From an uncultured Planctomycetota bacterium (GTDB lineage Bacteria > Planctomycetota > Planctomycetia > Gemmatales > Gemmataceae): a DNA stretch of 64,000 nucleotides. How positions within the stretch are numbered: the stretch's first letter is position 1; the number at the start of each line of letters is the position of its first letter. Positions 3,028 to 11,914 of this stretch are shown here, one piece after another. A program made the translations under genes and the position numbers. Under the pieces are notes generated by a model. That model searched no databases and had not been told where the DNA came from. It worked only from the letters and a program-made list of their open reading frames with translations. Where the stretch lies: NCBI GenBank assembly GCA_963849325.1, contig CAWKHF010000010.1, positions 128,001 to 192,000 of the forward strand, given 5' to 3'.

Positions 3028-3092
3028 TCGTTTAGCCGCGACGCGCAGCGGAGCGCGAAGACCGCGCTCCGCTGCGCGTCGCGGCTAAACGA
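3028..3092. repeat. REP-like palindrome (TTTAGCCGCGACGCGCAGCGGAGCGC family)
   Basis: Long inverted repeat; near-identical copy at 32640-32706, degenerate copy at 30715-30775. Confidence 0.9.
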
Positions 3093-3159: not shown

Positions 3160-3934
3160 ATGAGATTGCCGATTCGAGCTCTTGGCCTGCTGACCGTGCT
3201 GTCCCTGGCGGCGACTCCGTGCGGCCGAGGGACAAGGGACGCCGGGCAAGGCGTCGCCACGCTACACGACCGCCGCTTCGAGCACCGCCGGCGGCAGCGG
3301 CAAGTATTACATGAATCGGGAGATCGCCTTCGTCATGGGACATCAGGGGGCCGGCTGGCTCGAACGTCCCGAGCGCGAGAAAGAAGAACAGCCTAAAAAA
3401 CTGCTGGCGACGCTGGAACTCAAGCCGGGCCAGGTCGTCGCCGACATCGGCGCCGGCAGCGGCTATCACACCTTCCGCATGGCCGAGAAGGTCGGACCAC
3501 GCGGCAAGGTGCTGGCCGTGGACATCCAGAAGGAAATGCTCGACATCATCCGCCAGCGCATGAAGAAGGAGAAGGTGGCCAACGTCGAGCCGATCCTCGG
3601 CACCGAGACCGATCCGAAACTACCGGACAACGGCGTCGATTTGATCCTGATGGTGGACGTTTATCACGAATTCGCCTTCCCTTATGAGATGACGGAAGCG
3701 CTGGTCAAGGCCCTCAAGCCCGGCGGCCGGATCGCGTTCGTCGAATTTCGCCGGGAAGACGAGAAGGTACCGATCCTGCTGGCGCACAAGATGACGGTGA
3801 AGCAAGTGCTCAAGGAGATGGGGCCGCACGCGCTCAAGCACGTCAAGACGATCGACTCGCTGCCGTGGCAGCACGTTATCCTCTTCGAGAAGAAGGCGGC
3901 CGGCAAGGATGTTCCGCAGGGCCGCGAGCGTTAG
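3160..3934 (+). CDS. Class I SAM-dependent methyltransferase with signal peptide; N-terminal frameshift
   Basis: VADIGAGSG motif I; MGHQGAGWLERPERE; signal-like MRLPIRALGLL in another frame. Confidence 0.85.
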
Positions 3935-3941
3935 AGGCACG

Positions 3942-4022
3942 AACCAAATGCATTTTTGACCCCGGATAACACGGATAACACGGATAAAACAAAAGAAGCG
4001 TTCTCGTTTTCTTTATCCGTTT
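3942..4022. repeat. Left part of an ACACGGATA-type hairpin, interrupted by the insertion
   Basis: CCAAATGCATTTTTGACCCCGGATAACACGGATAACACGGATAAA is complementary to sequence at 4012-4022 plus 8232-8268. Confidence 0.85.
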
Positions 4023-4153
4023 GTAACCGTTCACCGATTTTTCAGCAGTTTTTCAGTTCCAGACATGCCGTCTGACCATGAAAAGTGTCGTCCCAGCCCA
4101 CCCAGGCAGAATGTCTGGGGCCGAAAAAAGGCTGGAGGGTGGTGAACGGTTAC
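4023..4153. mobile_element. MITE copy 1 (131 bp), IS66-like ends
   Basis: 13-bp perfect TIR GTAACCGTTCACC/GGTGAACGGTTAC; no ORF; second copy at 8092-8223. Confidence 0.9.
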
Positions 4154-4236
4154 GCCCGGAGAATGGCTAGGAAAAGGTTCCTGACACGTTCCTGACGCCT
4201 CTTCTTTCCGAATGTTAAAAAAACTTCCAGGGACTG

Positions 4237-4279
4237 TTGACAACCCTCCTCCCCCCAACTAAACTGAATTAGTGCACTA
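4237..4279 (+). promoter_or_regulatory. Sigma70-type promoter with candidate GntR operator
   Basis: TTGACA(4237)-17 bp-TAAACT(4260); palindrome TAGTGCACTA at 4270-4279. Confidence 0.7.
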
Positions 4280-4294
4280 GGGTGGAGAAAGCCA

Positions 4295-4690
4295 ATGCTC
4301 ATTGACCCGAAAAGCCCGATTCCGATCTTTCAACAAATTGCGGCGCAAATGCGGCAACACATCGCCTTGGGGGTCTATAAGCCGAAGGAATCACTGCCCT
4401 CCCTGCGAAGCTTGGCCGCTGACATTCAGGTGAATCCCAACACCGTTCAAAAAGCCTATGACGAGTTGACCCGCGAAGGCCTCGTTGAGTCACGGCGCGG
4501 AGCGGGCCTTTTCGTGGCCGATCGGGCCAGCGCAGCCGGAACGACCCAAACCGAGAGACGAATTCATCGCCAGCTTTCCCGGGTCATTGCCAATGGTCTC
4601 AGGAAGCGAATTGCACCCGAGCGAATTCGAACCCTGTTTCGCGAAGCCCTCGACAGCCAGGTGGCAGCCACGACCTGGAGCACGCCATGA
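4295..4690 (+). CDS. GntR family regulator (YtrA subfamily)
   Basis: PIFQQI...LPSLRSLA...VNPNTVQKAYDEL...RGAGLFV; short C-terminus; precedes an ABC ATPase. Confidence 0.92.
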   Translation: MLIDPKSPIPIFQQIAAQMRQHIALGVYKPKESLPSLRSLAADIQVNPNTVQKAYDELTREGLVESRRGAGLFVADRASAAGTTQTERRIHRQLSRVIANGLRKRIAPERIRTLFREALDSQVAATTWSTP

Positions 4691-5592
4691 CCCCCATGCT
4701 CATAGAGTTCTCCGCAGTCACAAAAGAGTTCAAGAACCATCGGGCGCTGGACTCTCTGAGTTTGCAATTCCGGGAGGGGAGCACCGTGGGCTTGCTCGGT
4801 CCCAACGGTGCCGGCAAGACCACCTGCCTGAAAATGATGCTCGGCCTATTGCGGCCTACCTCCGGTTCGGTGTCCATCTTCGGATGGGACCTCTGGTTGG
4901 AGGGTCCGAAGATCCGACAGGAGATTGGGTATGTTCCGGAAGATCCCTGGCTCTACCCCTGGATGACCGTTCGCCAGGTCATCCGCTTCGCCTCATCCAT
5001 GTATGAGCGTTGGTCGAGCGCTCTGGCGGATGATCTTCTGGTCAATCTGAATTTGCCTCCCGACTGTACTGTCAAAAACCTATCTAAAGGAATGCGCATG
5101 AAGGCGGCGCTCTTGGTGGCCCTGGCCCATCGTCCCCGCTTGCTGATCCTTGACGAACCCATGTCGGGGCTTGATCCACTCGCCAGGGAGGACTTGGTAG
5201 AAATTCTCATCAAGTTGAGAGGTGAAGAGACAGAGTGCATCATTATCTCTTCCCACCAGATTGATGACGTCACTCGACTGGCCAACGAGGTCGTCATCCT
5301 CCATGCGGGCAAGCGGCTCGTGCATGCGTCCATTGATGAATTGCTTGGGACCACGAAGCGGGTCGAGGCGGTCTTGCTGGATGGCCGCCTTCCTGAACGT
5401 GTCTTGCAACAAACTGTGTGGCAGCGAGTCGATCGACGAACCTGGTCGATGACCTTGCATCCGTTCGACGCCACCATGGTCAATACCTTGCGGGAAGCCA
5501 ACCCGATTTCATCCCTAACGGTGATCGACATGGGCCTGGAACAGGTCTTCAAAGACTTTATTCGAGGAGCAACGCCATGTTGCGCACCCTGA
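4687..5592 (+). CDS. ABC exporter ATP-binding protein (YtrB-like)
   Basis: GPNGAGKT, LSKGM signature, LILDEP, H-loop SSH. Confidence 0.95.
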   Translation: MTPMLIEFSAVTKEFKNHRALDSLSLQFREGSTVGLLGPNGAGKTTCLKMMLGLLRPTSGSVSIFGWDLWLEGPKIRQEIGYVPEDPWLYPWMTVRQVIRFASSMYERWSSALADDLLVNLNLPPDCTVKNLSKGMRMKAALLVALAHRPRLLILDEPMSGLDPLAREDLVEILIKLRGEETECIIISSHQIDDVTRLANEVVILHAGKRLVHASIDELLGTTKRVEAVLLDGRLPERVLQQTVWQRVDRRTWSMTLHPFDATMVNTLREANPISSLTVIDMGLEQVFKDFIRGATPCCAP

Positions 5593-6254
5593 TTTGGAAA
5601 GATGTGTTGGCCAATCGCTTTTCGCTCTTGCTCGCAGCTATCTTGCTCGTAGCAGCCTATGGCGTGGCAGCGATCATGGGTTTGCTAGATCCCGTGATGT
5701 CTGCTCAACCGTCGTGGGGACGACGACTGGCCGAGATTTTGTTTTTCGGCAGTCTGATGAGCTATGCCGTGGCCCATTTATCCCTGGCGGTCTTATCGGG
5801 AAACTTGATCGCTGGGGAACGCGTCCGTCGATCCGCCGAATTCCTCGCCTATCTGCCGCCAAGCCGGGGGATGGTTTTGCGGGCCAAGGCAACGGTGCTT
5901 GGCGCCGTGGCACTCCTCTTGCTGTTTATCCCTCTTGCGATGACAGGGTTGGGGGCGTTCTTCGATAAGGCCTCCCTTGTCGATATCTATCGTAAGACTG
6001 CGAGCGGGTGTGTTGTCATCTGGGCGATGGGCTTTTGTGCTTCCGGAATCGGTTGGCTGGCATCCTGTTGTTTACAGAGCAACGCCGTCGCCATCCTCTT
6101 CGCTCTTTTATCGCCCTATATCCTGATGATACTAATCATGCGCGTGATTCAGAGTGCAGAACCCATGGCCATCTTGGTGGCAGCCAGCTTGTCCATCGGC
6201 TTGGCAGGATTCCTGTTTGGAACGATGCACTACCTTAATCGCGTGGAGCCTTAA
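5577..6254 (+). CDS. ABC-2 type permease
   Basis: MLRTLIWKD start; about 6 TM helices; 'GERVRRSAEFLAYLP' loop. Confidence 0.85.
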   Translation: MLRTLIWKDVLANRFSLLLAAILLVAAYGVAAIMGLLDPVMSAQPSWGRRLAEILFFGSLMSYAVAHLSLAVLSGNLIAGERVRRSAEFLAYLPPSRGMVLRAKATVLGAVALLLLFIPLAMTGLGAFFDKASLVDIYRKTASGCVVIWAMGFCASGIGWLASCCLQSNAVAILFALLSPYILMILIMRVIQSAEPMAILVAASLSIGLAGFLFGTMHYLNRVEP

Positions 6255-6274
6255 TTGGAAGGGAGGGACGATCG

Positions 6275-7318
6275 ATGCTACGTCTCAGGTCAATAAGGAT
6301 CAAGGTAATCATCTATGCCCTCACTCCAATCCTTGTGTTCGGGAGCGCTTATCGCCTGGCACGAGTTTTTCTCCCGGCAAGCGAAGATGCGGCTGCGACC
6401 CACGACGAATTATTTAGCGAGGAAGAGTGGATCGAACAAATCGCAGATGCCTTCAGACTCTATGCCCAGGCATTTGAGAATCGCTTTCCGGACGTGGAAT
6501 ACCTCTATGGGGATGAGTTGATGGGAGCCGTCAGAGAAAAACTGAAAATTCCCCGTTGCGCAGGGTGGTCACCGGCCAGCGGCTTCGGTCGGTTGACCAA
6601 ACTACAAAGGAGTGACCCGACGTTTGGTTACCACGGTTCGGGAGCTAGCCTTGGGGACCCCAATCGGGTCCTCGTTCATTGGTCAACGGCGGAGGGCAGG
6701 TCTCGAGTCATTTTCTGCGATCTGTCCCATCGTGAGGTCGATGGTGGTGAGTTGCTGAATCTTCTTTCGCCCTGGCAACCGGTTGCCAACCAATGTGTTG
6801 TGCGGGTGGGTTCCGGCGGATCGGGGACGATCGTTTCGCCAAAAGGATTGATTGTCACCGCTGCTCATGTCCTTCCTTCGAGCGGTTCGAGTATCGATAT
6901 CCATTTTGCCGATGGCCGTGCGATGACATCGACCGTGGTTGCTCAAAGTAAACGATTCGATGTCGCCGTTCTCAGAATTCCCGTGGACCAGTCGATTCCT
7001 TTCGTTCGGCTGGAAGAACGACATGTTAGCGAGGATCAGGTGGCCTGGATCATAGGATATGGCGGTGGTCGTTCCGAGCCCGCTATTCGCCAAGTACGAA
7101 CCGTCCAGTACGTCCTCGATGAGTTGATTACGACCTGGAACAATGTCATCGGCGGCGATTGCGGCGGGGCCGTGTTGAACGCCAAGGGATGTCTCATCGG
7201 CGTTCTTGACACCCTAGCTGAGCCCCACCCAAGATACTGTCGAACGATTTCTTCTCCCACGCTGCTGAAGGTTTTCCCGGTTTTGTTAGAGCAGGTCGGG
7301 GGGATGAGGTCACCGTGA
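6275..7318 (+). CDS. Membrane-anchored trypsin-like peptidase domain protein (nucleophile site Cys)
   Basis: GSGTIVS, TAAHV, DVAVLRI, GGDCGGAVLN. Confidence 0.8.
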   Translation: MLRLRSIRIKVIIYALTPILVFGSAYRLARVFLPASEDAAATHDELFSEEEWIEQIADAFRLYAQAFENRFPDVEYLYGDELMGAVREKLKIPRCAGWSPASGFGRLTKLQRSDPTFGYHGSGASLGDPNRVLVHWSTAEGRSRVIFCDLSHREVDGGELLNLLSPWQPVANQCVVRVGSGGSGTIVSPKGLIVTAAHVLPSSGSSIDIHFADGRAMTSTVVAQSKRFDVAVLRIPVDQSIPFVRLEERHVSEDQVAWIIGYGGGRSEPAIRQVRTVQYVLDELITTWNNVIGGDCGGAVLNAKGCLIGVLDTLAEPHPRYCRTISSPTLLKVFPVLLEQVGGMRSP

Positions 7319-7759
7319 GAAGGGGCGGCGCTGTTTTCCGAAAGGCAGGTGCGCGAGCGTACGTTGCAGGCAACAGATTTGGCGCAGTTGTGGACCGACC
7401 TGTCGGACGCCGATGTCCCGAACGCTTACCGGGCCCAGGGGATGCTGGTCGCCGGTGCCGGGCACCATCGTTCAGCGCCTTGCCTGTTGCATGGTCAAGG
7501 ACCTTGACCACGCGGAGGCGCGCATCAGGGAACTCTATGCTGACTTCGCGGACTTGGCGGTCAAGCACATCGGCGATTCACGAGTATTTCCGGGCAGGAA
7601 GCTGCATTGACTGATGTGCAGGGTGTCCCGGCGAGCGGCGTGCGGGTGCGAATGGTCCCTCCGCTGGCACACTCAAGCAACCAGCGGCGACCGAGTTTGT
7701 CTGCCGGAAACTGTACCGCAATCTTGTGACAGATTCCGAAGAGCCAGGGCGGGAGTTGC

Positions 7760-8041
7760 CCCGGAGGGACCGCAGGTGGGATCGGGTCGCTCCCGTGGAA
7801 CCTGCGACAGCGGCCTTCCCCGTCTGACAGCCGGGTCGGCTCCCCATCAGATATTTCGGGGCCTGCTCAGCGTTCACTCACGTTACGGCCTGCTTGCTCG
7901 CGGGGTCCCCGACGGACCCTTTCCATCAGAGGCTTCGACAGGATCGTTACCTCCCCTGCCGCTCCGATTGCTACCGGCCGGAGCGACCGTTGCCGGGTGG
8001 GAATTTCACCCACTGAAGAGAGACACCTTGGCACGGCGCAC
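7760..8041 (-). mobile_element. Group II intron 5' fragment (domain I only, no RT)
   Basis: Minus strand starts GTGCGCCGTGCCAAGG...GTGGGTGAAATTCCCAC...GGTAACGA...GAAGCC...AGCCGACCC...GGGGAAGGCCG; no RT ORF or domain V/VI; left limit approximate. Confidence 0.75.
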
Positions 8042-8091
8042 TGTCAGCAACTTTTTTTTCCAGCACTGCATGCGGCGATGATAGCCCGGAG

Positions 8092-8223
8092 GTAACCGTT
8101 CACCGTTTTTTCAGCAGTTTTTCAGTCAAAGACATTCCGTCTGACCATGAAAAGTGTCGTCCCAGCCACCCAGGCAGAATGTCCGGGGCCGAAAATCAAG
8201 GCCGGAGGGTGGTGAACGGTTAC
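8092..8223. mobile_element. MITE copy 2 (132 bp)
   Basis: Same TIRs; about 10 differences from copy 1 by eye. Confidence 0.9.
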
Positions 8224-8268
8224 ATCCGTTTTATCCGTGTTATCCGTGGTTCAAAGTGCATTAGGTTT
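8224..8268. repeat. Right part of the interrupted hairpin
   Basis: ATCCGTTTTATCCGTGTTATCCGTGGTTCAAAGTGCATTAGG pairs with 3942-3990. Confidence 0.85.
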
Positions 8269-8276
8269 AGTAGCTC

Positions 8277-8801
8277 TTACTGTTTCTTCTTTTCGTATTG
8301 GAGCGCCTTGTTCAGGTGGCGGATGGCCACACCGAGGTCGCGGACGGCGGCCACGCGATGGCCGTGGTAATCGTGATCGGCTTTCTCCATCACCGCGACC
8401 GTCTGCTGCAGGACGGGGATGGCCTCGGCCAACTGCATGTTGGAGACGGCCTGCGGCTCGTTACCCTTGCCCTTGCCCTTGACGGCGCCGGGGTTGGCGG
8501 CCTTGCCCGTGCCCGTCTTCTTGCTCTGCATCCCCAGGGCCAACCGCAGTTGATGCTGGGCGGCGCCGATGGCCTTGACGGCCACGACGCGATGGCCGCC
8601 GTAGTCGTGGTTGGCGGCTTCAAGTGTCTGCTTGGTCGCGTGCAAGACGCGCAGCCCCTCGCGCAGCTGGGCGTTGGAGACTTTCTGCGGCTCCGACTTG
8701 CGCGGCTTGGTGGGCGCGGCATCGACCGGGACAGTCAACCCCGTCAGCAGAAGTCCAACGGCCAGAGAGAACGTGCGAGCTTTCGACCCTTGAGCGAACA
8801 T
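8277..8801 (-). CDS. Secreted helical protein with duplicated HDY(G/H)GHRV motif
   Basis: Signal peptide; two repeats EPQxVSNxQL...A(N/D)HDYxGHRVxAV. Confidence 0.8.
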   Translation of the reverse strand: MFAQGSKARTFSLAVGLLLTGLTVPVDAAPTKPRKSEPQKVSNAQLREGLRVLHATKQTLEAANHDYGGHRVVAVKAIGAAQHQLRLALGMQSKKTGTGKAANPGAVKGKGKGNEPQAVSNMQLAEAIPVLQQTVAVMEKADHDYHGHRVAAVRDLGVAIRHLNKALQYEKKKQ

Positions 8802-8928
8802 ACGATTACTCCTCGTCAGGGGATGGATTGCAAGAATACGGTCTCCGCTCGCTGACGCTCGCGGCTCTGCTCATTCAACCAGGCGAGGCCACGAAAGTTC
8901 CGCCAACCTCGCTTTTTCTTTTCCGCGG

Positions 8929-9210
8929 TCAACTCGTGCGAGTGACGAACTTGATGAAGATCAGCAGCACCTCGGCGACGATGACGATGGCGCCGACGAC
9001 GCGGCGAATGGGCGGCTGGACGGGGCGGAGATAGCCCACGGCTGCCGCAGCCAGGACGCCCGTCTCGACGACAGCCGGGGCGTTGGCCAGGCGAATGCCG
9101 TCCTTGCGCACCACCAGGGCGGCATTGCACTTGAAACACGAGAACTCGCGGCCAATGTCCGCGGCCGCCACGTTGTAGGCCGTGTTGCAACCGGGGCACA
9201 ACTTATTCAC
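8929..9210 (-). CDS. Small zinc-ribbon membrane protein (possibly truncated)
   Basis: CPGC...CFKC and a C-terminal hydrophobic stretch. Confidence 0.6.
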   Translation of the reverse strand: MNKLCPGCNTAYNVAAADIGREFSCFKCNAALVVRKDGIRLANAPAVVETGVLAAAAVGYLRPVQPPIRRVVGAIVIVAEVLLIFIKFVTRTS

Positions 9211-9238
9211 GGCGGGCCTTCCCCCTTATCGAATTCCA

Positions 9239-10971
9239 TCAATCAAATATCCCTTTACTCGTTATCGTCACCGCCTGAGACTGGGTAACGCCGTTGCTGG
9301 CCTTGACGCGCAGCGTATAACGTCCGGGCCGGGCGGCCTTGACCTTCCAGGTGACGGGACTGTTACGGCTGACGGCGCCGGCCGGCAGCGGCGGCACGGC
9401 CTGCGTCTCCTCGCCGTCCACGCGCGTCAGACCGCGCGGCAACTCCAGCGTCACCATCTGCCGCGGCAACGGGTCGTTGACGTAGGCCGTCACCGTGAAT
9501 TCCTCGCCTGGCCGGAACGAGCCGCCGATAGTCAGTCCGAGCTTGCCGCCGCCCTCGCTGCTGGAGACGTGGCCCAGGCCATAGGCAAATCCCAGCTCGC
9601 GCTTCCCTTGCGGCGGCAGCTCCTTGGCGTCCCAGTAGAGGACGACGCACGAATCATCGCGGATCGGCTGGACGGGGAAATCCCAGTCGATGTGCGGCTT
9701 TTCAAACGCCCCCCACTGAAGCTGGTTGACCCAGTGACACAGCGTAACGCGGTCGGGACTGTCGAGGCGTCCGCCCAGCCGCAGCGTCAGGTGAGCGACG
9801 GTGCCTGGCTTGGCGAGGCTGGGGCGTTCCAGCGCCTGGATAAAGTCGGGCACGCTCGCCGCCGTGCGGAAGTCGCGCGACGTATCGCACAGGCCACTCG
9901 CTCCGGGAATGGTGAAGGGTACGCCGTCGTTGCCGCCGATGAAGGTGTCCAGCAGGAAACGGAAAGCTACCCGGTGCGGCCGTTGGTCCTGGTTCTCGAT
10001 GCGGTAGCGCACCAGGCAGGTGTCGAGACGGCGTTTGGTTTGACCGGGCGCGACTTGTTCGCCAGCCGTGATCTCGACGGTCTGCGTCACTTCGACGCGC
10101 TGTTGATCGTAGAAATACACGGATTCCCGGCCGATGCGTTGGCGTCCGCTGCGGTCCATGCCGAGCGCTCTCGCGCGTCGCGGCAGGTGCCGCGCAGGAT
10201 CGGCAGCTCCTTCGAGGGATCGGGGGTAAAGCCAGCGGTATCGCCCTTGCGACCACTCCCGCCGGTCCCGAAAACGAATTTGCCGAATAGGAAGGTCTCG
10301 CCGTCGATCTGCGTCAGGGCGGTATGGGTCTCCCCATCGTCTCGGAAGGTCAACCGCTTCGGTTTGCCCTTGTCGTCCTTCTCCTTGAGCATGGTCAAGC
10401 CGAAGCGCAGAGTGTCAAGCTGGGGGTCCGGGGATTCCTGGAACTTGACGGCCAGCAGGGGGTCGGGGTCGATGGGCAGCGCGACCACGGGGGCTTCCGG
10501 CTCTTCCTCCTGCGGTCCGCCGCCGACGAAGCGATCGCGGACCATGAAGACGAGCAGGACGAAGGCGAGTAGTCCCGCCGGCAGCAAGCGCAGGGCTGGC
10601 GGCCACTGACGGAAATCCAGCCGTGGCGCCGGCGCGGATGCCGGGATCGCGGAAGGCGGAGGGACCGGGCGGGCCGCCGGTGCGGCATCCTTGCCGACGA
10701 GGTGGCCGCACTCCAGGCAGGCCCGTGCTTGCGGCGCCAACGGCGCCTGACAGGCGGGACAGGTACGCATGGCGGAGGGCCGAGGCAGCGGCGGAGGCGC
10801 GGGCACGACGGCCGCGCGGGCCAAAGGCACAGACGCCGGCGCCGGTGCCGGTGCCGGTGCCAGCAAGGCGAAGACGCCCTGGCAGTGCGGGCAGCGGACT
10901 TGACGGGCCGATACCCCCGTCGGCAACTGCAACGCCCGCTTGCAGTGCGGACACGAAACGAGCTGAGACAT
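9239..10971 (-). CDS. Zinc-ribbon/TM protein with beta-rich C-terminal domains; frameshift near 10150
   Basis: MSQLVSCPHC...CPAC..CLEC, Pro-rich linker, TM; continues into ORF 9239..10159. Confidence 0.7.
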
Positions 10972-10990
10972 GGTGCGCCCTCCCGGAGCC

Positions 10991-11914
10991 TCACTTGGCG
11001 CGACGGCCGCGCTCCCCGAAGCGCAGGACACTTCGCCCCACCCGGATCAGGTCGCCCGAACGGAGGGGCGACGGTTGCGTAACGCGAGTCTCGTTGAGAT
11101 ACGTCCCGCCGCTGCTGTCGGCATCGACGAGGAGATACCGGCCGCCTTGCTGCAAGATGCGGGCGTGCCGCGGCTCGACGCCGGGATCACCAAACAGGCC
11201 AATGTCGCAGGACTCGGCCCGGCCAATCAGCGTCTCACTCTTGCTCAGAAGCAACTCGCGGCCGGCGCGAAAGCCGGCTTCAACGCGCACCCACGCTTCG
11301 CGCAACACCACCTGGGCCAGACCGATCAGCAGGCCGATGCAAACGCCGAGCACCACGAAGCCGATGGCACTGGGACTCCACAACAGCTCCTGCGGCTGGG
11401 CGGCGAACAGCACCTTCCACAGACCGCGGAGCGAGACGTATAGGACACCGCCCAGCAGTCCGCCGACGGCGCCGCCGATCAGACCGTTGAGGAGCTTGCG
11501 CCGCGCCGCTCCCCTCCTCGCCGCGGACCAGGCTGGCCAAGACCTCGAAGACGCCGATGGACAGGCCAACCAGCAGGCCGGTACACGTCCAGCCGAGGAC
11601 GAGGAACAGCGACCACTCGGTCCAGCCGAAAAACGCTTGTCCGAGCAGGCCGCCAAAGAAGCCGCCGAGACAGCCAACCAGCACGGCCGTGCCGCGCGCA
11701 GGGCCACTTGACCAGCCTGGCGTAGCGACAGCACCCATAACGCATCGACCAGTCCGACGCCCAGCGCCACGGTCAGGCCCAGGAATACGCCCTTGACGCC
11801 GGCCTGGATGACCAGCGGTGTTTCCGGGGCCAACCAGCGGCCCAGCAACCAGCCGAACAGGGCGGCCCAACCGCCGAACAGGGCACAGTAGTAAATGAAC
11901 CAGCGAAACGACAT
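10991..11914 (-). CDS. Multi-pass membrane protein with C-terminal FHA domain; compensating frameshifts
   Basis: IGRAESCDI...HARI...DADSSGGTYLN...LRSGDLIRVG; missing TM segment lies in the frame of ORF 11280..11870. Confidence 0.85.
   Translation of the reverse strand: MSFRWFIYYCALFGGWAALFGWLLGRWLAPETPLVIQAGVKGVFLGLTVALGVGLVDALWVLSLRQAGQVALRAARPCWLAVSAASLAACSDKRFSAGPSGRCSSSSAGRVPACWLACPSASSRSWPAWSAARRGAARRKLLNGLIGGAVGGLLGGVLYVSLRGLWKVLFAAQPQELLWSPSAIGFVVLGVCIGLLIGLAQVVLREAWVRVEAGFRAGRELLLSKSETLIGRAESCDIGLFGDPGVEPRHARILQQGGRYLLVDADSSGGTYLNETRVTQPSPLRSGDLIRVGRSVLRFGERGRRAK

Follow-up and report, generated by a model that had tools for sequence, protein, structure and literature searches.

A MITE-bounded peptidase operon with exchanged 8-bp duplications in a Gemmataceae chromosome: probable fusion with a circular or tandem donor

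The locus and its cargo

The DNA surveyed in this study (hereafter the window) is a stretch of 64,000 nucleotides from an uncultured member of the Gemmataceae, in which a block of genes lies between two short elements in the order ATCCGTTT-MITE1 (131 bp)-GCCCGGAG-3,922 bp-GCCCGGAG-MITE2 (132 bp)-ATCCGTTT. This agrees base for base with an initial annotation of the same DNA, whose coordinates, two 8-bp pairs and 3.9-kb cargo were all borne out, each element standing where it had been placed. The features are as follows, in window coordinates.

3942-4022 (no strand): left arm and loop of the target palindrome, including the left ATCCGTTT (inverted repeats, fold)
4015-4022 (+): outer 8-bp target-site duplication ATCCGTTT, left copy (sequence, empty-site reconstruction)
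4023-4153 (+): MITE1, 131 bp, with perfect 13-bp terminal inverted repeat GTAACCGTTCACC
4154-4161 (+): inner 8-bp repeat GCCCGGAG, left copy, adjoining the right end of MITE1
4162-8083: cargo between the inner repeats, 3,922 bp
4162-4294 (+): leader of the cargo; the promoter-like TTGACA-17-TAAACT at 4237-4265 agrees with the consensus at 10 of 12 positions
4295-4690 (+): short GntR-family regulator, 131 aa (Pfam GntR, E = 5e-18)
4687-5592 (+): ABC transporter ATP-binding protein, 301 aa (Pfam ABC_tran, E = 1.8e-29)
5577-6254 (+): ABC-2-type membrane protein, 225 aa (weak Pfam ABC2_membrane_2, E = 3.2e-4, below cut-off)
6275-7318 (+): trypsin-like serine peptidase, 347 aa, full length (Pfam Trypsin_2, E = 8.9e-19)
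7319-7800 (no strand): GC-rich stretch (0.62-0.64) separating the peptidase gene from the recognisable part of the intron
7801-8041 (-): group II intron, 5' part, with GTGCG as its first bases at 8041 (Rfam, plasmid matches)
8042-8083 (no strand): last 42 bp of the cargo, separating the intron 5' end from the inner repeat
8084-8091 (+): inner 8-bp repeat GCCCGGAG, right copy, adjoining the left end of MITE2
8092-8223 (+): MITE2, 132 bp, with terminal repeats and orientation as MITE1
8224-8231 (+): outer 8-bp target-site duplication ATCCGTTT, right copy (sequence, empty-site reconstruction)
8232-8267 (no strand): right arm of the target palindrome (inverted repeats, fold)

As judged from its sequence, the cargo is a predicted operon for a GntR regulator, an ABC ATPase, an ABC-2 membrane protein and a trypsin-like peptidase, together with a truncated group II intron. 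PmtR was among the NCBIfam models nearest to the regulator, all of which scored below their cut-offs, and the best model for the ATPase was PmtA-like (161 bits, below the cut-off of 350). The orthologue of the membrane protein at another genome locus (L001, described below) scores 31.3 bits, above the Pfam cut-off. The peptidase has a hydrophobic N-terminus, and its C-terminus aligns with those of its relatives. A reading of the cargo as a defence system was rejected, the PADLOC matches being generic ATPase and protease similarities only. Pfam families of transposases, integrases or recombinases were found in none of the 62 window ORFs of at least 120 aa, nor in three short ORFs in 7194-7877, and for these ORFs the earlier statement that the window holds no transposase stands. 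The cargo is also without a replication or recombination gene.

The intron remnant at the right end of the cargo was overlooked in the initial annotation. It is matched by Rfam RF02003 at 7878-8015 on the minus strand (108.5 bits; gathering score 49), with around 240 nt recognisable, and is truncated, having neither a reverse-transcriptase gene nor domain V/VI; an apparent reverse-transcriptase similarity was rejected as a 22-aa match containing a stop codon (E = 0.22). When the cargo was searched against plasmids, all 15 of the matches listed, from 99 matching records, comprised the intron 5' part alone and ended at 8016-8041. The intron part is 77% identical to the intron of plasmid NZ_CP011276.1. 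The ORFs of 7319-7800 gave no Pfam match, this stretch bore no convincing similarity to reverse transcriptases, and 7286-7800, searched alone, gave no plasmid match; the stretch 7319-7800 may represent a deletion junction or intron sequence that has decayed.

The cargo is compositionally foreign to its Gemmataceae host, with a GC content of 0.52-0.60 against 0.61-0.68 in the flanks, and a GC3 of 0.57-0.69 in its four genes against 0.83 and 0.85 in two flanking genes. Relatives of the peptidase were found in metagenomes from three sources (six clusters, 22 member sequences, 98-99% aligned identity), a copy in another sample differing at 2 of 347 residues, whereas the flanking methyltransferase had nothing above 87% identity except the window's own contig. 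The cargo is counted as mobile because of this difference. Neither its foreign composition nor its spread, which is wider than that of the host, had been noted before. A scan of a genome collection with the peptidase alignment gave 382 pattern matches, 119 of which survived tblastn, and 80 loci were retained. Among these, L001 alone holds a full-length relative (71% identity), the other 79 loci encoding distant trypsin-like proteins (24-46% identity). At L001, the sole orthologous genome locus, the operon has ordinary chromosomal genes on both sides, and neither a MITE nor flanking repeats accompany it; homology begins at 4259, and 4162-4258 has no counterpart there.

MITE copies, exchanged duplications and insertion site

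The two MITEs are in direct orientation and GTAACCGTTCACC is perfect over 13 bp at all of their ends, in line with the 13-bp repeats starting GTAA that had been claimed for them. At 131 and 132 bp they have no coding capacity of their own, being crossed by short chance ORFs only, and the element takes the form of an imperfect hairpin. The whole length of MITE1 folds as one hairpin (MFE -62.5, z = -7.4), and the hairpin of MITE2 is less perfect (MFE -49.0, z = -3.5). Seven substitutions and two indels spanning three bases separate the copies, as the earlier count of around 10 differences had indicated, and the longest tract identical in both is 29 bp. Six pair-breaking alleles fall in MITE2 and one in MITE1, an imbalance with a binomial value of about 0.13 in structures that derive from these same sequences. 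The 64-kb window contains these two MITE copies and four exact matches to GTAACCGTTCACC; with up to two mismatches there are six matches against 0.93 expected, a number reached in none of 100 shuffles.

The target duplication is of fixed length (8 bp) and is present as two pairs, which are swapped. The inner repeat GCCCGGAG adjoins MITE1 on the right and MITE2 on the left and is therefore flank rather than element; that it might be part of the element, which the initial annotation had named as fatal to its reading, is excluded by these opposite positions. The inner flanks are identical at all eight bases, while those of a classical composite transposon would be unrelated, an expectation that the initial annotation had also voiced and that we share. 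Two random 8-mers of the window are identical with a probability of 4.6e-5, and chance is not plausible as the source of the match. The 8-mer is not rare in itself, as GCCCGGAG has 11 matches on both strands of the window against 6.7 expected. ATCCGTTT and GCCCGGAG agree at three of eight positions, with CCG common to both at positions 3-5. When the cargo ends were rejoined and folded, no recognisable structure appeared (z -0.3 to 0.7), and this fold lends the inner junction no independent support.

That the outer pair is genuine is shown by a palindrome that reappears without the insert. Inverted repeats pair 3942-3990 with 8219-8267 (21 nt perfect), and once 4023-8231, comprising the insert and one ATCCGTTT, is deleted, a near-perfect hairpin of around 100 nt forms again between two convergent genes. 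The reconstructed empty site has an MFE of -67.1 compared with -30.4 +/- 3.7 in shuffles (z = -10), and within the window the palindrome motif was found at the insertion site alone. Since ATCCGTTT sits inside a local ATCCGT-rich palindrome, the pure chance argument for the outer repeat is weakened; it is regarded as a true duplication because removing the insert with one copy restores the hairpin. The insertion into the intergenic palindrome is precise. The initial annotation did not mention the long palindrome as target.

Affiliation of the elements and related systems

Elements of the IS66 family generate 8-bp duplications, and their inverted repeats open with GTAAGCG (PMC11946415); for some members, namely ISPa75, ISPsy43 and ISPa97, the repeat is given as the 15-bp GTAACCGTCCGGGCA (PMC12888890). 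The present ends begin GTAA and are accompanied by an 8-bp target duplication, as in the first account (PMC11946415), and their first eight bases, GTAACCGT, are those with which the 15-bp repeat of the second begins (PMC12888890); the initial attribution to IS66 thus fits both sources on ends and duplications. The perfect repeat is, however, 13 bp here as against the 20-30 bp quoted for the family, and neither tnpA, tnpB nor tnpC is present, no autonomous element with GTAACCGTTCACC ends having been found in the window. Judged solely from the eight terminal bases in common and the duplication length, the elements are probably MITEs of IS66 type. No parent IS was detected among the 62 window ORFs. 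The 20-mer at the MITE right end had no match in the genome collection, the terminal repeat was present in none of 81 fetched loci, and the MITE alone matched neither plasmid nor phage records. A protein search with a 75-aa chance ORF across the MITE1/cargo junction, intended to catch other junctions, yielded no candidate.

The ends of IS26 are unlike GTAACCGTTCACC. In targeted cointegrates of IS26, the donor and recipient copies have swapped their flanking 8-bp repeats, and IS26/IS6 pseudo-compound transposons resemble the present block in that direct element copies bracket the cargo, with 8-bp duplications (PMC7986276). Direct copies around a cargo with exchanged 8-bp flanks are what is found here. 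As with an IS26 translocatable unit, element and cargo could in principle leave together as a non-replicating circle and insert again beside a resident copy. Unlike those of the IS6 family, the bounding elements are 131-132 bp without a gene, so that any transposase must act in trans; the planctomycete host and the non-resistance cargo also differ from IS26. The structure works like the IS26-type family but is no member of it, as its bounding elements encode no transposase.

TIME-COMPs (MITESen1, TIME244) consist of Tn3-derived MITEs which bracket cargo in direct orientation (PMC13367494). For MITESen1, homologous recombination of a MITE-bearing circle into a replicon already holding one MITE has been proposed, and for TIME244 a MITE-made cointegrate of two plasmids has been described (PMC13367494). 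The likeness to our locus lies in the non-autonomous direct MITEs bracketing a cargo and in the circle capture by MITE recombination proposed there. TIME-COMPs differ in having 5-6-bp repeats and belonging to the Tn3 family, as against 8 bp here, which places the present structure outside the group, and in occurring on enterobacterial plasmids with resistance genes; furthermore, the available text of that report makes no mention of an identical inner flank pair, whereas both pairs survive here (PMC13367494). Acinetobacter integrons flanked by a 439-bp MITE have a duplication around the whole structure (PMC3934969), and are similar in that one MITE occurs at both cargo ends with the duplication outside. 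They differ in that the two MITEs are held to have transposed together, and the abstract mentions no matching inner flanks (PMC3934969). Readings as att-site-specific integration or as a REPIN were rejected, since neither makes 8-bp duplications and no integrase was found. The core sites of attC are RYYYAAC and GTTRRRY; an integron cassette was likewise rejected, because the ends and flanks misfit these cores, no integrase occurs in the 62 ORFs and attC recombination proceeds without duplication.

Origin of the block and its significance

The block probably arose by a cointegrate-type fusion between the chromosome and a circular or tandem donor bearing one MITE at GCCCGGAG. A circle had already been proposed in the initial annotation, and of that proposal a circular or tandem donor with a MITE at GCCCGGAG stands as the most economical explanation, while the donor and the empty site were not found: genome, plasmid and phage searches returned no single-MITE allele, empty site, free circle or donor junction. 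Before the fusion, the 3' arm of the palindrome in a Gemmataceae chromosome would have been occupied by a MITE of probable IS66 type, flanked by ATCCGTTT. A separate circle of ~4.07 kb, either a non-replicating 'translocatable unit' or a plasmid remnant, would have carried the GntR/ABC/peptidase operon, the broken intron and a second, slightly different MITE copy with its own duplication, GCCCGGAG. A single crossover between the MITE copies, by host homologous recombination or by an IS26-like exchange of ends made by a transposase, would then have fused the circle into the chromosome, giving two direct MITE copies each with one chromosomal and one donor flank; the reverse crossover would free the circle again. 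The arrangement, the two 8-bp pairs, the precise insertion into the palindrome and the foreign, widespread cargo are established; we infer the circle, the resident MITE and this recombination route. The origin of the circle itself is not explained by the cargo, as replication and recombination genes are absent.

Recombination with a resident MITE is ranked above fresh transposition as the route, at about an even chance. The copies differ at 10 positions, as two MITEs that had inserted independently would be expected to, and these differences had been taken earlier to favour recombination over recent cointegration. The same product results from a replicative cointegrate, from transposition out of a multimeric donor and from recombination with a resident MITE, and the differences favour the last of these only weakly. 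The 29-bp identical tract is short for RecA-type recombination, which speaks against a crossover. Moreover, the 10 differences could postdate a fusion that began with identical copies: by arithmetic from the MITE divergence, about 0.85 changes are expected in the 16 compared positions of the 8-bp pairs, a figure that leaves room for divergence after fusion. One MITE looks wholly intact and the other is altered in both halves, a weak hint of end exchange rather than an internal crossover. It is improbable that IS66-type transposases, acting in trans, process MITE ends by a 'targeted conservative' reaction like that of IS26; to our knowledge this reaction has been documented so far for the IS6/IS26 family only.

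Possible, if on balance unlikely, is a transposase-made cointegrate into an empty ATCCGTTT site, with initially identical copies that later diverged, either by replicative transposition of the MITE on the circle or by movement of a MITE-cargo-MITE unit from a dimeric or tandem donor. In both versions a single step would have produced the two MITE copies together with the new 8-bp duplication. Multimeric-donor cointegrates are known from Tn5/IS50. Such an event yields the exact flanks observed with no need of a resident MITE, the absence of changes in the four 8-bp repeats is arithmetically compatible with the MITE divergence, and TIME244, a Tn3-derived MITE, provides a precedent (PMC13367494). 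Seven substitutions and two indels in 131 bp are nevertheless much for copies that began identical, given a peptidase only 2 of 347 residues away from a copy in another sample; the pair-breaking changes are uneven (six in MITE2 versus one in MITE1), though not significantly so, and a non-exhaustive literature search found no evidence for replicative IS66-type transposition.

There is little to recommend an ordinary composite transposon, in which MITE-cargo-MITE formed in a linear donor without any circle and then transposed into ATCCGTTT, the two MITEs having inserted 3.9 kb apart at GCCCGGAG by target preference or having arisen by a tandem duplication at 8-bp microhomology. It would account for the outer duplication and the diverged copies, and the CCG shared by the two 8-mers and the 11 matches of GCCCGGAG against 6.7 expected lend it some colour, but agreement at only three of eight positions implies a loose target preference, and without preference the coincidence has a probability of ~5e-5. 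Least credible by far is an assembly artefact in which a chromosomal MITE and a small MITE-bearing circle were threaded through their common repeat: a repeat with two entries and two exits allows such a path, and near-identical cargo copies in other assemblies occur on contigs of at most 4,047 bp only, which shows assemblers to be prone to break at this point, but a 131-bp repeat whose copies differ at 10 positions is resolvable by most assemblers, the source contig is 558,916 bp long and the cargo genes are intact.

The concept behind a fusion with a circular or tandem donor is already in print, and its novelty had been overrated initially, exchange of 8-bp flanks having been described for IS26 (PMC7986276) and capture of a MITE-bearing circle proposed for MITESen1 (PMC13367494). 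The locus adds a clean example from a phylum new to the concept, its MITE being probably of IS66 type, and reveals no new mechanism; in a literature search that was not exhaustive, no paper turned up that deals with MITEs of planctomycetes or with capture bounded by IS66-type MITEs. The locus is a rare 'fossil': the two 8-bp duplications left by a cointegrate-type fusion have both stayed intact, so that its history can be read from one sequence. MITE-bounded capture is hereby extended from clinical plasmids to an environmental Gemmataceae chromosome with a non-resistance cargo, suggesting that very short non-autonomous elements suffice as portable homology for the movement of operons. The near-identical cargo contigs from many samples should end in the same MITE and GCCCGGAG flank. 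If the IS66-type reaction is true, the 131-bp hairpin would be a docking site at which non-replicating gene circles enter and leave planctomycete chromosomes.

Layout of the insertion and its target

Two short non-autonomous elements, MITE1 and MITE2, bracket a four-gene cargo in the same (direct) orientation, and each is bordered by one outer and one inner 8-bp repeat.

Elements of the locus (window coordinates)
4015-4022, ATCCGTTT, outer repeat, left
4023-4153, MITE1, 131 bp
4154-4161, GCCCGGAG, inner repeat, left
4162-8083, cargo, 3,922 bp
8084-8091, GCCCGGAG, inner repeat, right
8092-8223, MITE2, 132 bp
8224-8231, ATCCGTTT, outer repeat, right

The arrangement of MITEs, cargo and both pairs of 8-bp repeats described in the initial annotation is exact in the sequence, and that observation is here confirmed and strengthened. 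As GCCCGGAG stands at the right end of MITE1 but at the left end of MITE2, it is flanking DNA outside the element. The probability that two random 8-mers of the window are identical is 4.6e-5.

The insertion site is a spacer on which its neighbouring genes converge, with a class I methyltransferase gene (3311-3934, +) to the left and an unassigned ORF (8277-8801, -) to the right. This spacer is palindromic, with a perfect 21-nt inverted repeat (3970-3990 / 8228-8248) inside a 49-nt one. The empty site was rebuilt by script, deleting 4023-8231 and keeping one ATCCGTTT copy, and the resulting 157-nt spacer folded into a single near-unbroken hairpin of about 100 nt (MFE -67.1 compared with -30.4 +/- 3.7 for shuffles, z = -10), the helix continuing straight through the rejoined point. 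The restored hairpin is evidence that the whole 4.2 kb was inserted precisely, duplicating 8 bp. This evidence is independent of the repeat match, which matters because the ATCCGT-rich spacer would otherwise weaken the chance argument; the outer duplication is real. The target hairpin (3942-4022 and 8232-8267) is made of ACGGATAA-type repeats, with the MITE inserted in its 3' arm, and its motif has no second occurrence within the window. The hairpin probably serves as a bidirectional terminator.

Two further repeats were observed nearby. Within the right-flank ORF, which matched no family, a segment of about 135 nt recurs as a direct repeat (8325-8459 / 8559-8693, spacing 234 nt, 72% identical), suggesting a possible duplicated domain. 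Directly after a TPR-protein gene, a perfect 30-nt inverted repeat with a 5-nt loop (3028-3092) overlaps a sub-threshold Rfam match to 'sucC RNA' (23.6 bits, E = 0.11).

A mosaic cargo and its relatives

Features of the cargo operon (window coordinates)
4237-4265, predicted promoter-like site upstream of the operon
4295-4690, short GntR regulator
4687-5592, ABC ATPase
5577-6254, ABC-2-type membrane protein
6275-7318, trypsin-like peptidase with a hydrophobic N-terminus

The nearest named models for the cargo are of the PmtR/PmtA type, a GntR-controlled exporter; since every score fell below the curated cut-off, its function would be described only broadly, as a regulated exporter plus protease. 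PADLOC gave generic similarities only.

The operon differs in composition from its surroundings, both in GC (0.52-0.60 compared with 0.61-0.68 in the flanks) and in third-position GC (0.57-0.69 in the four cargo genes compared with 0.83 and 0.85 in the two flanking genes). Outside its own contig (558,916 bp), which alone is closer, the best relatives of the flanking methyltransferase are at most 87% identical and include several named Gemmataceae MAGs, placing the host, on sequence grounds, in the Gemmataceae. The cargo peptidase, on the other hand, has near-identical metagenomic copies in six clusters (22 member sequences from three sources), 98-99% identical over aligned residues, so that the cargo occurs in samples where the host backbone is not represented. 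By these sequence comparisons, the cargo is foreign and moves.

In five of the six peptidase clusters the main difference is a variable internal tandem duplication of 41 aa, present once or twice. The proteins of these clusters (P0001-P0005) repeat the segment, including the TAAHVL motif region, one or two times more, and are 388 and 429 aa long compared with 347 aa here. The contigs that bear the six clusters all measure 1,524-4,047 bp; of the flank gene's 119 non-self relatives, 52 are on contigs of up to 4,047 bp (hand count). The cargo is 3,922 bp long, and one 123-bp duplication would bring it to 4,045 bp. The short contigs fit a block bounded by assembly-breaking repeats, but this is only a hint.

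The right-hand 760 bp of the cargo lie outside the operon. They contain an Rfam match to domains I-IV of a group II intron (RF02003, 7878-8015, -; 108.5 bits, gathering score 49) within an intron part at 7801-8041 (-), the minus strand reading GTGCG at 8041. Neither a reverse-transcriptase gene nor a domain V/VI match was found in the intron region, which is therefore a 5' remnant. The preceding stretch (7319-7800) is GC-rich and matched nothing; together with the remnant it makes the cargo itself a mosaic with at least one internal deletion, and neither feature figured in the initial annotation. Plasmid matches to the region numbered 99 records, and all 15 matches listed cover the intron part only, ending at 8016-8041. 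Two of these 15 are planctomycete, Planctomyces sp. SH-PL62 (79%, the highest identity listed) and Frigoriglobus tundricola (72%); the relatives were searched among plasmids only, so the list says nothing on plasmid origin.

A peptidase-based genome scan (382 pattern matches, 119 of them tblastn-positive, 80 loci kept) returned a single full-length relative among the 80 loci, with 71% protein identity, at locus L001 on a Planctomycetota MAG contig of 202,657 bp. By blastn, window 4259-7285 matched L001 7999-11007 at 76.5%; the alignment spans the four genes only, with the 97-bp leader and the intron end outside. There the operon adjoins a phosphoglycerate-dehydrogenase-type gene and other ordinary genes, and L001 showed neither a terminal-repeat match nor flanking repeats. 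The operon is therefore a plain chromosomal module in a second planctomycete, the MITEs having been added in the window's lineage.

It was also observed that the L001 ABC ATPase (8429-9333) and peptidase (10001-11031) each comprise two overlapping ORFs, as a result of frameshifts or of errors in the sequencing. Located 5.5 kb upstream, L001 2446-2551 matches domain V/VI of a group II intron (RF00029, 40.8 bits), and long intergenic palindromes similar to that at window 3028-3092 occur at L001 6265-6314 and 13433-13505.

The MITE copies and the route of insertion

Both ends of each MITE carry GTAACCGTTCACC, a perfect 13-bp inverted repeat with four exact matches in the window, two per element; allowing up to two mismatches gave six matches against 0.93 expected. 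An internal 29-mer occurs in the window at these two sites only, even with three mismatches permitted, and a 20-mer scan of the genome collection for further copies gave no matches. Both elements are too short for coding capacity. The 62 window ORFs of at least 120 aa and three short ORFs at 7194-7877 gave no match to a transposase, integrase or recombinase family, which bears out the earlier statement that the window holds no transposase. The two copies differ by seven substitutions and two indels (three bases), matching the ten or so differences first reported.

IS66-family elements make repeats of 8 bp, and their 20-30-bp inverted repeats start GTAAGCG (PMC11946415), and ISPa75, ISPsy43 and ISPa97 share a 15-bp inverted repeat, GTAACCGTCCGGGCA, whose first eight bases, as given in that account, are common to the MITE (PMC12888890). 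The proposed IS66 attribution agrees with these descriptions in the 8-bp duplications and GTAA-starting ends, but this is a resemblance and not proof.

The pattern, with ATCCGTTT outside and GCCCGGAG inside two direct element copies, is the product expected from a replicon with an element at GCCCGGAG fusing with one carrying or receiving an element at ATCCGTTT. Three routes yield this product, and all need the cargo ends joined via GCCCGGAG, in a circle or a tandem array. We consider such a fusion quite probable, and the circle capture proposed in the initial annotation remains the best reading, though inferred from a single locus. The rejoined cargo ends gave no structure on folding, leaving the inner junction without independent support.

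In the first route, a MITE resident at ATCCGTTT would cross over with the donor's MITE, through host recombination or a transposase-made end exchange, for which IS26 targeted conservative cointegration is a model (PMC7986276). We favour this route, with about even confidence, because 10 of about 131 positions differ between the MITE copies, compared with 2 of 347 residues between the peptidase and a copy from another sample; the argument, a protein comparison only for the peptidase, may lend weight but is not decisive. The original claim that these differences favour recombination survives as a weak preference among routes with the same product. MITE1 folds over its full length (53 pairs, MFE -62.5, z = -7.4) and MITE2 more poorly (MFE -49.0, z = -3.5), with six pair-breaking changes in MITE2 and one in MITE1, spread over both element halves. 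This split, which is not significant and involves structures derived from the same sequences, would fit whole parental copies and hence exchange at the ends. Replication genes are absent from the cargo, so the circle would be either a non-replicating unit looped from an earlier MITE-bounded site or a plasmid remnant after the intron-truncating deletion.

Alternatively, the donor could have transposed replicatively into an empty ATCCGTTT site, or the MITE-cargo-MITE segment of a dimeric or tandemly amplified donor could have transposed, as element-bounded segments of multimeric donors do in Tn5/IS50. An account without a circle, in which two MITEs inserted independently at identical 8-mers and then transposed together, would need a strong target preference, but ATCCGTTT and GCCCGGAG have only three of eight positions in common (CCG, positions 3-5), so any preference is loose and this account is improbable. 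An assembly path threaded through the repeat would be an artefact of low probability, given a repeat of only 131 bp, 10 differences between the copies and a 559-kb contig. Integration at att sites, integron cassettes and REPINs were rejected, since 8-bp duplications are produced by none of them and the window ORFs include no integrase.

Comparison with known systems

In the way it works, the structure resembles the pseudo-compound transposons and translocatable units of IS26, yet it does not belong among them, since its bounding elements encode nothing. Closest in kind, among the accounts drawn on, are composites bounded by Tn3-derived MITEs, of which TIME244 made a plasmid cointegrate; the repeats described there are of 5-6 bp (PMC13367494), and the present element, with 8 bp, falls outside that family. 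The novelty first assigned to the locus was too high: an exchange of the 8-bp flanks is already described for IS26 targeted cointegrates (PMC7986276), and circle capture through recombination of MITE copies has been proposed for the Tn3-derived MITESen1 (PMC13367494). Neither IS66-type MITE-bounded capture nor planctomycete MITEs turned up in a non-exhaustive literature search. The MITE family is probably new, and the locus adds a clean instance of an already known type of event, from a phylum new for it.
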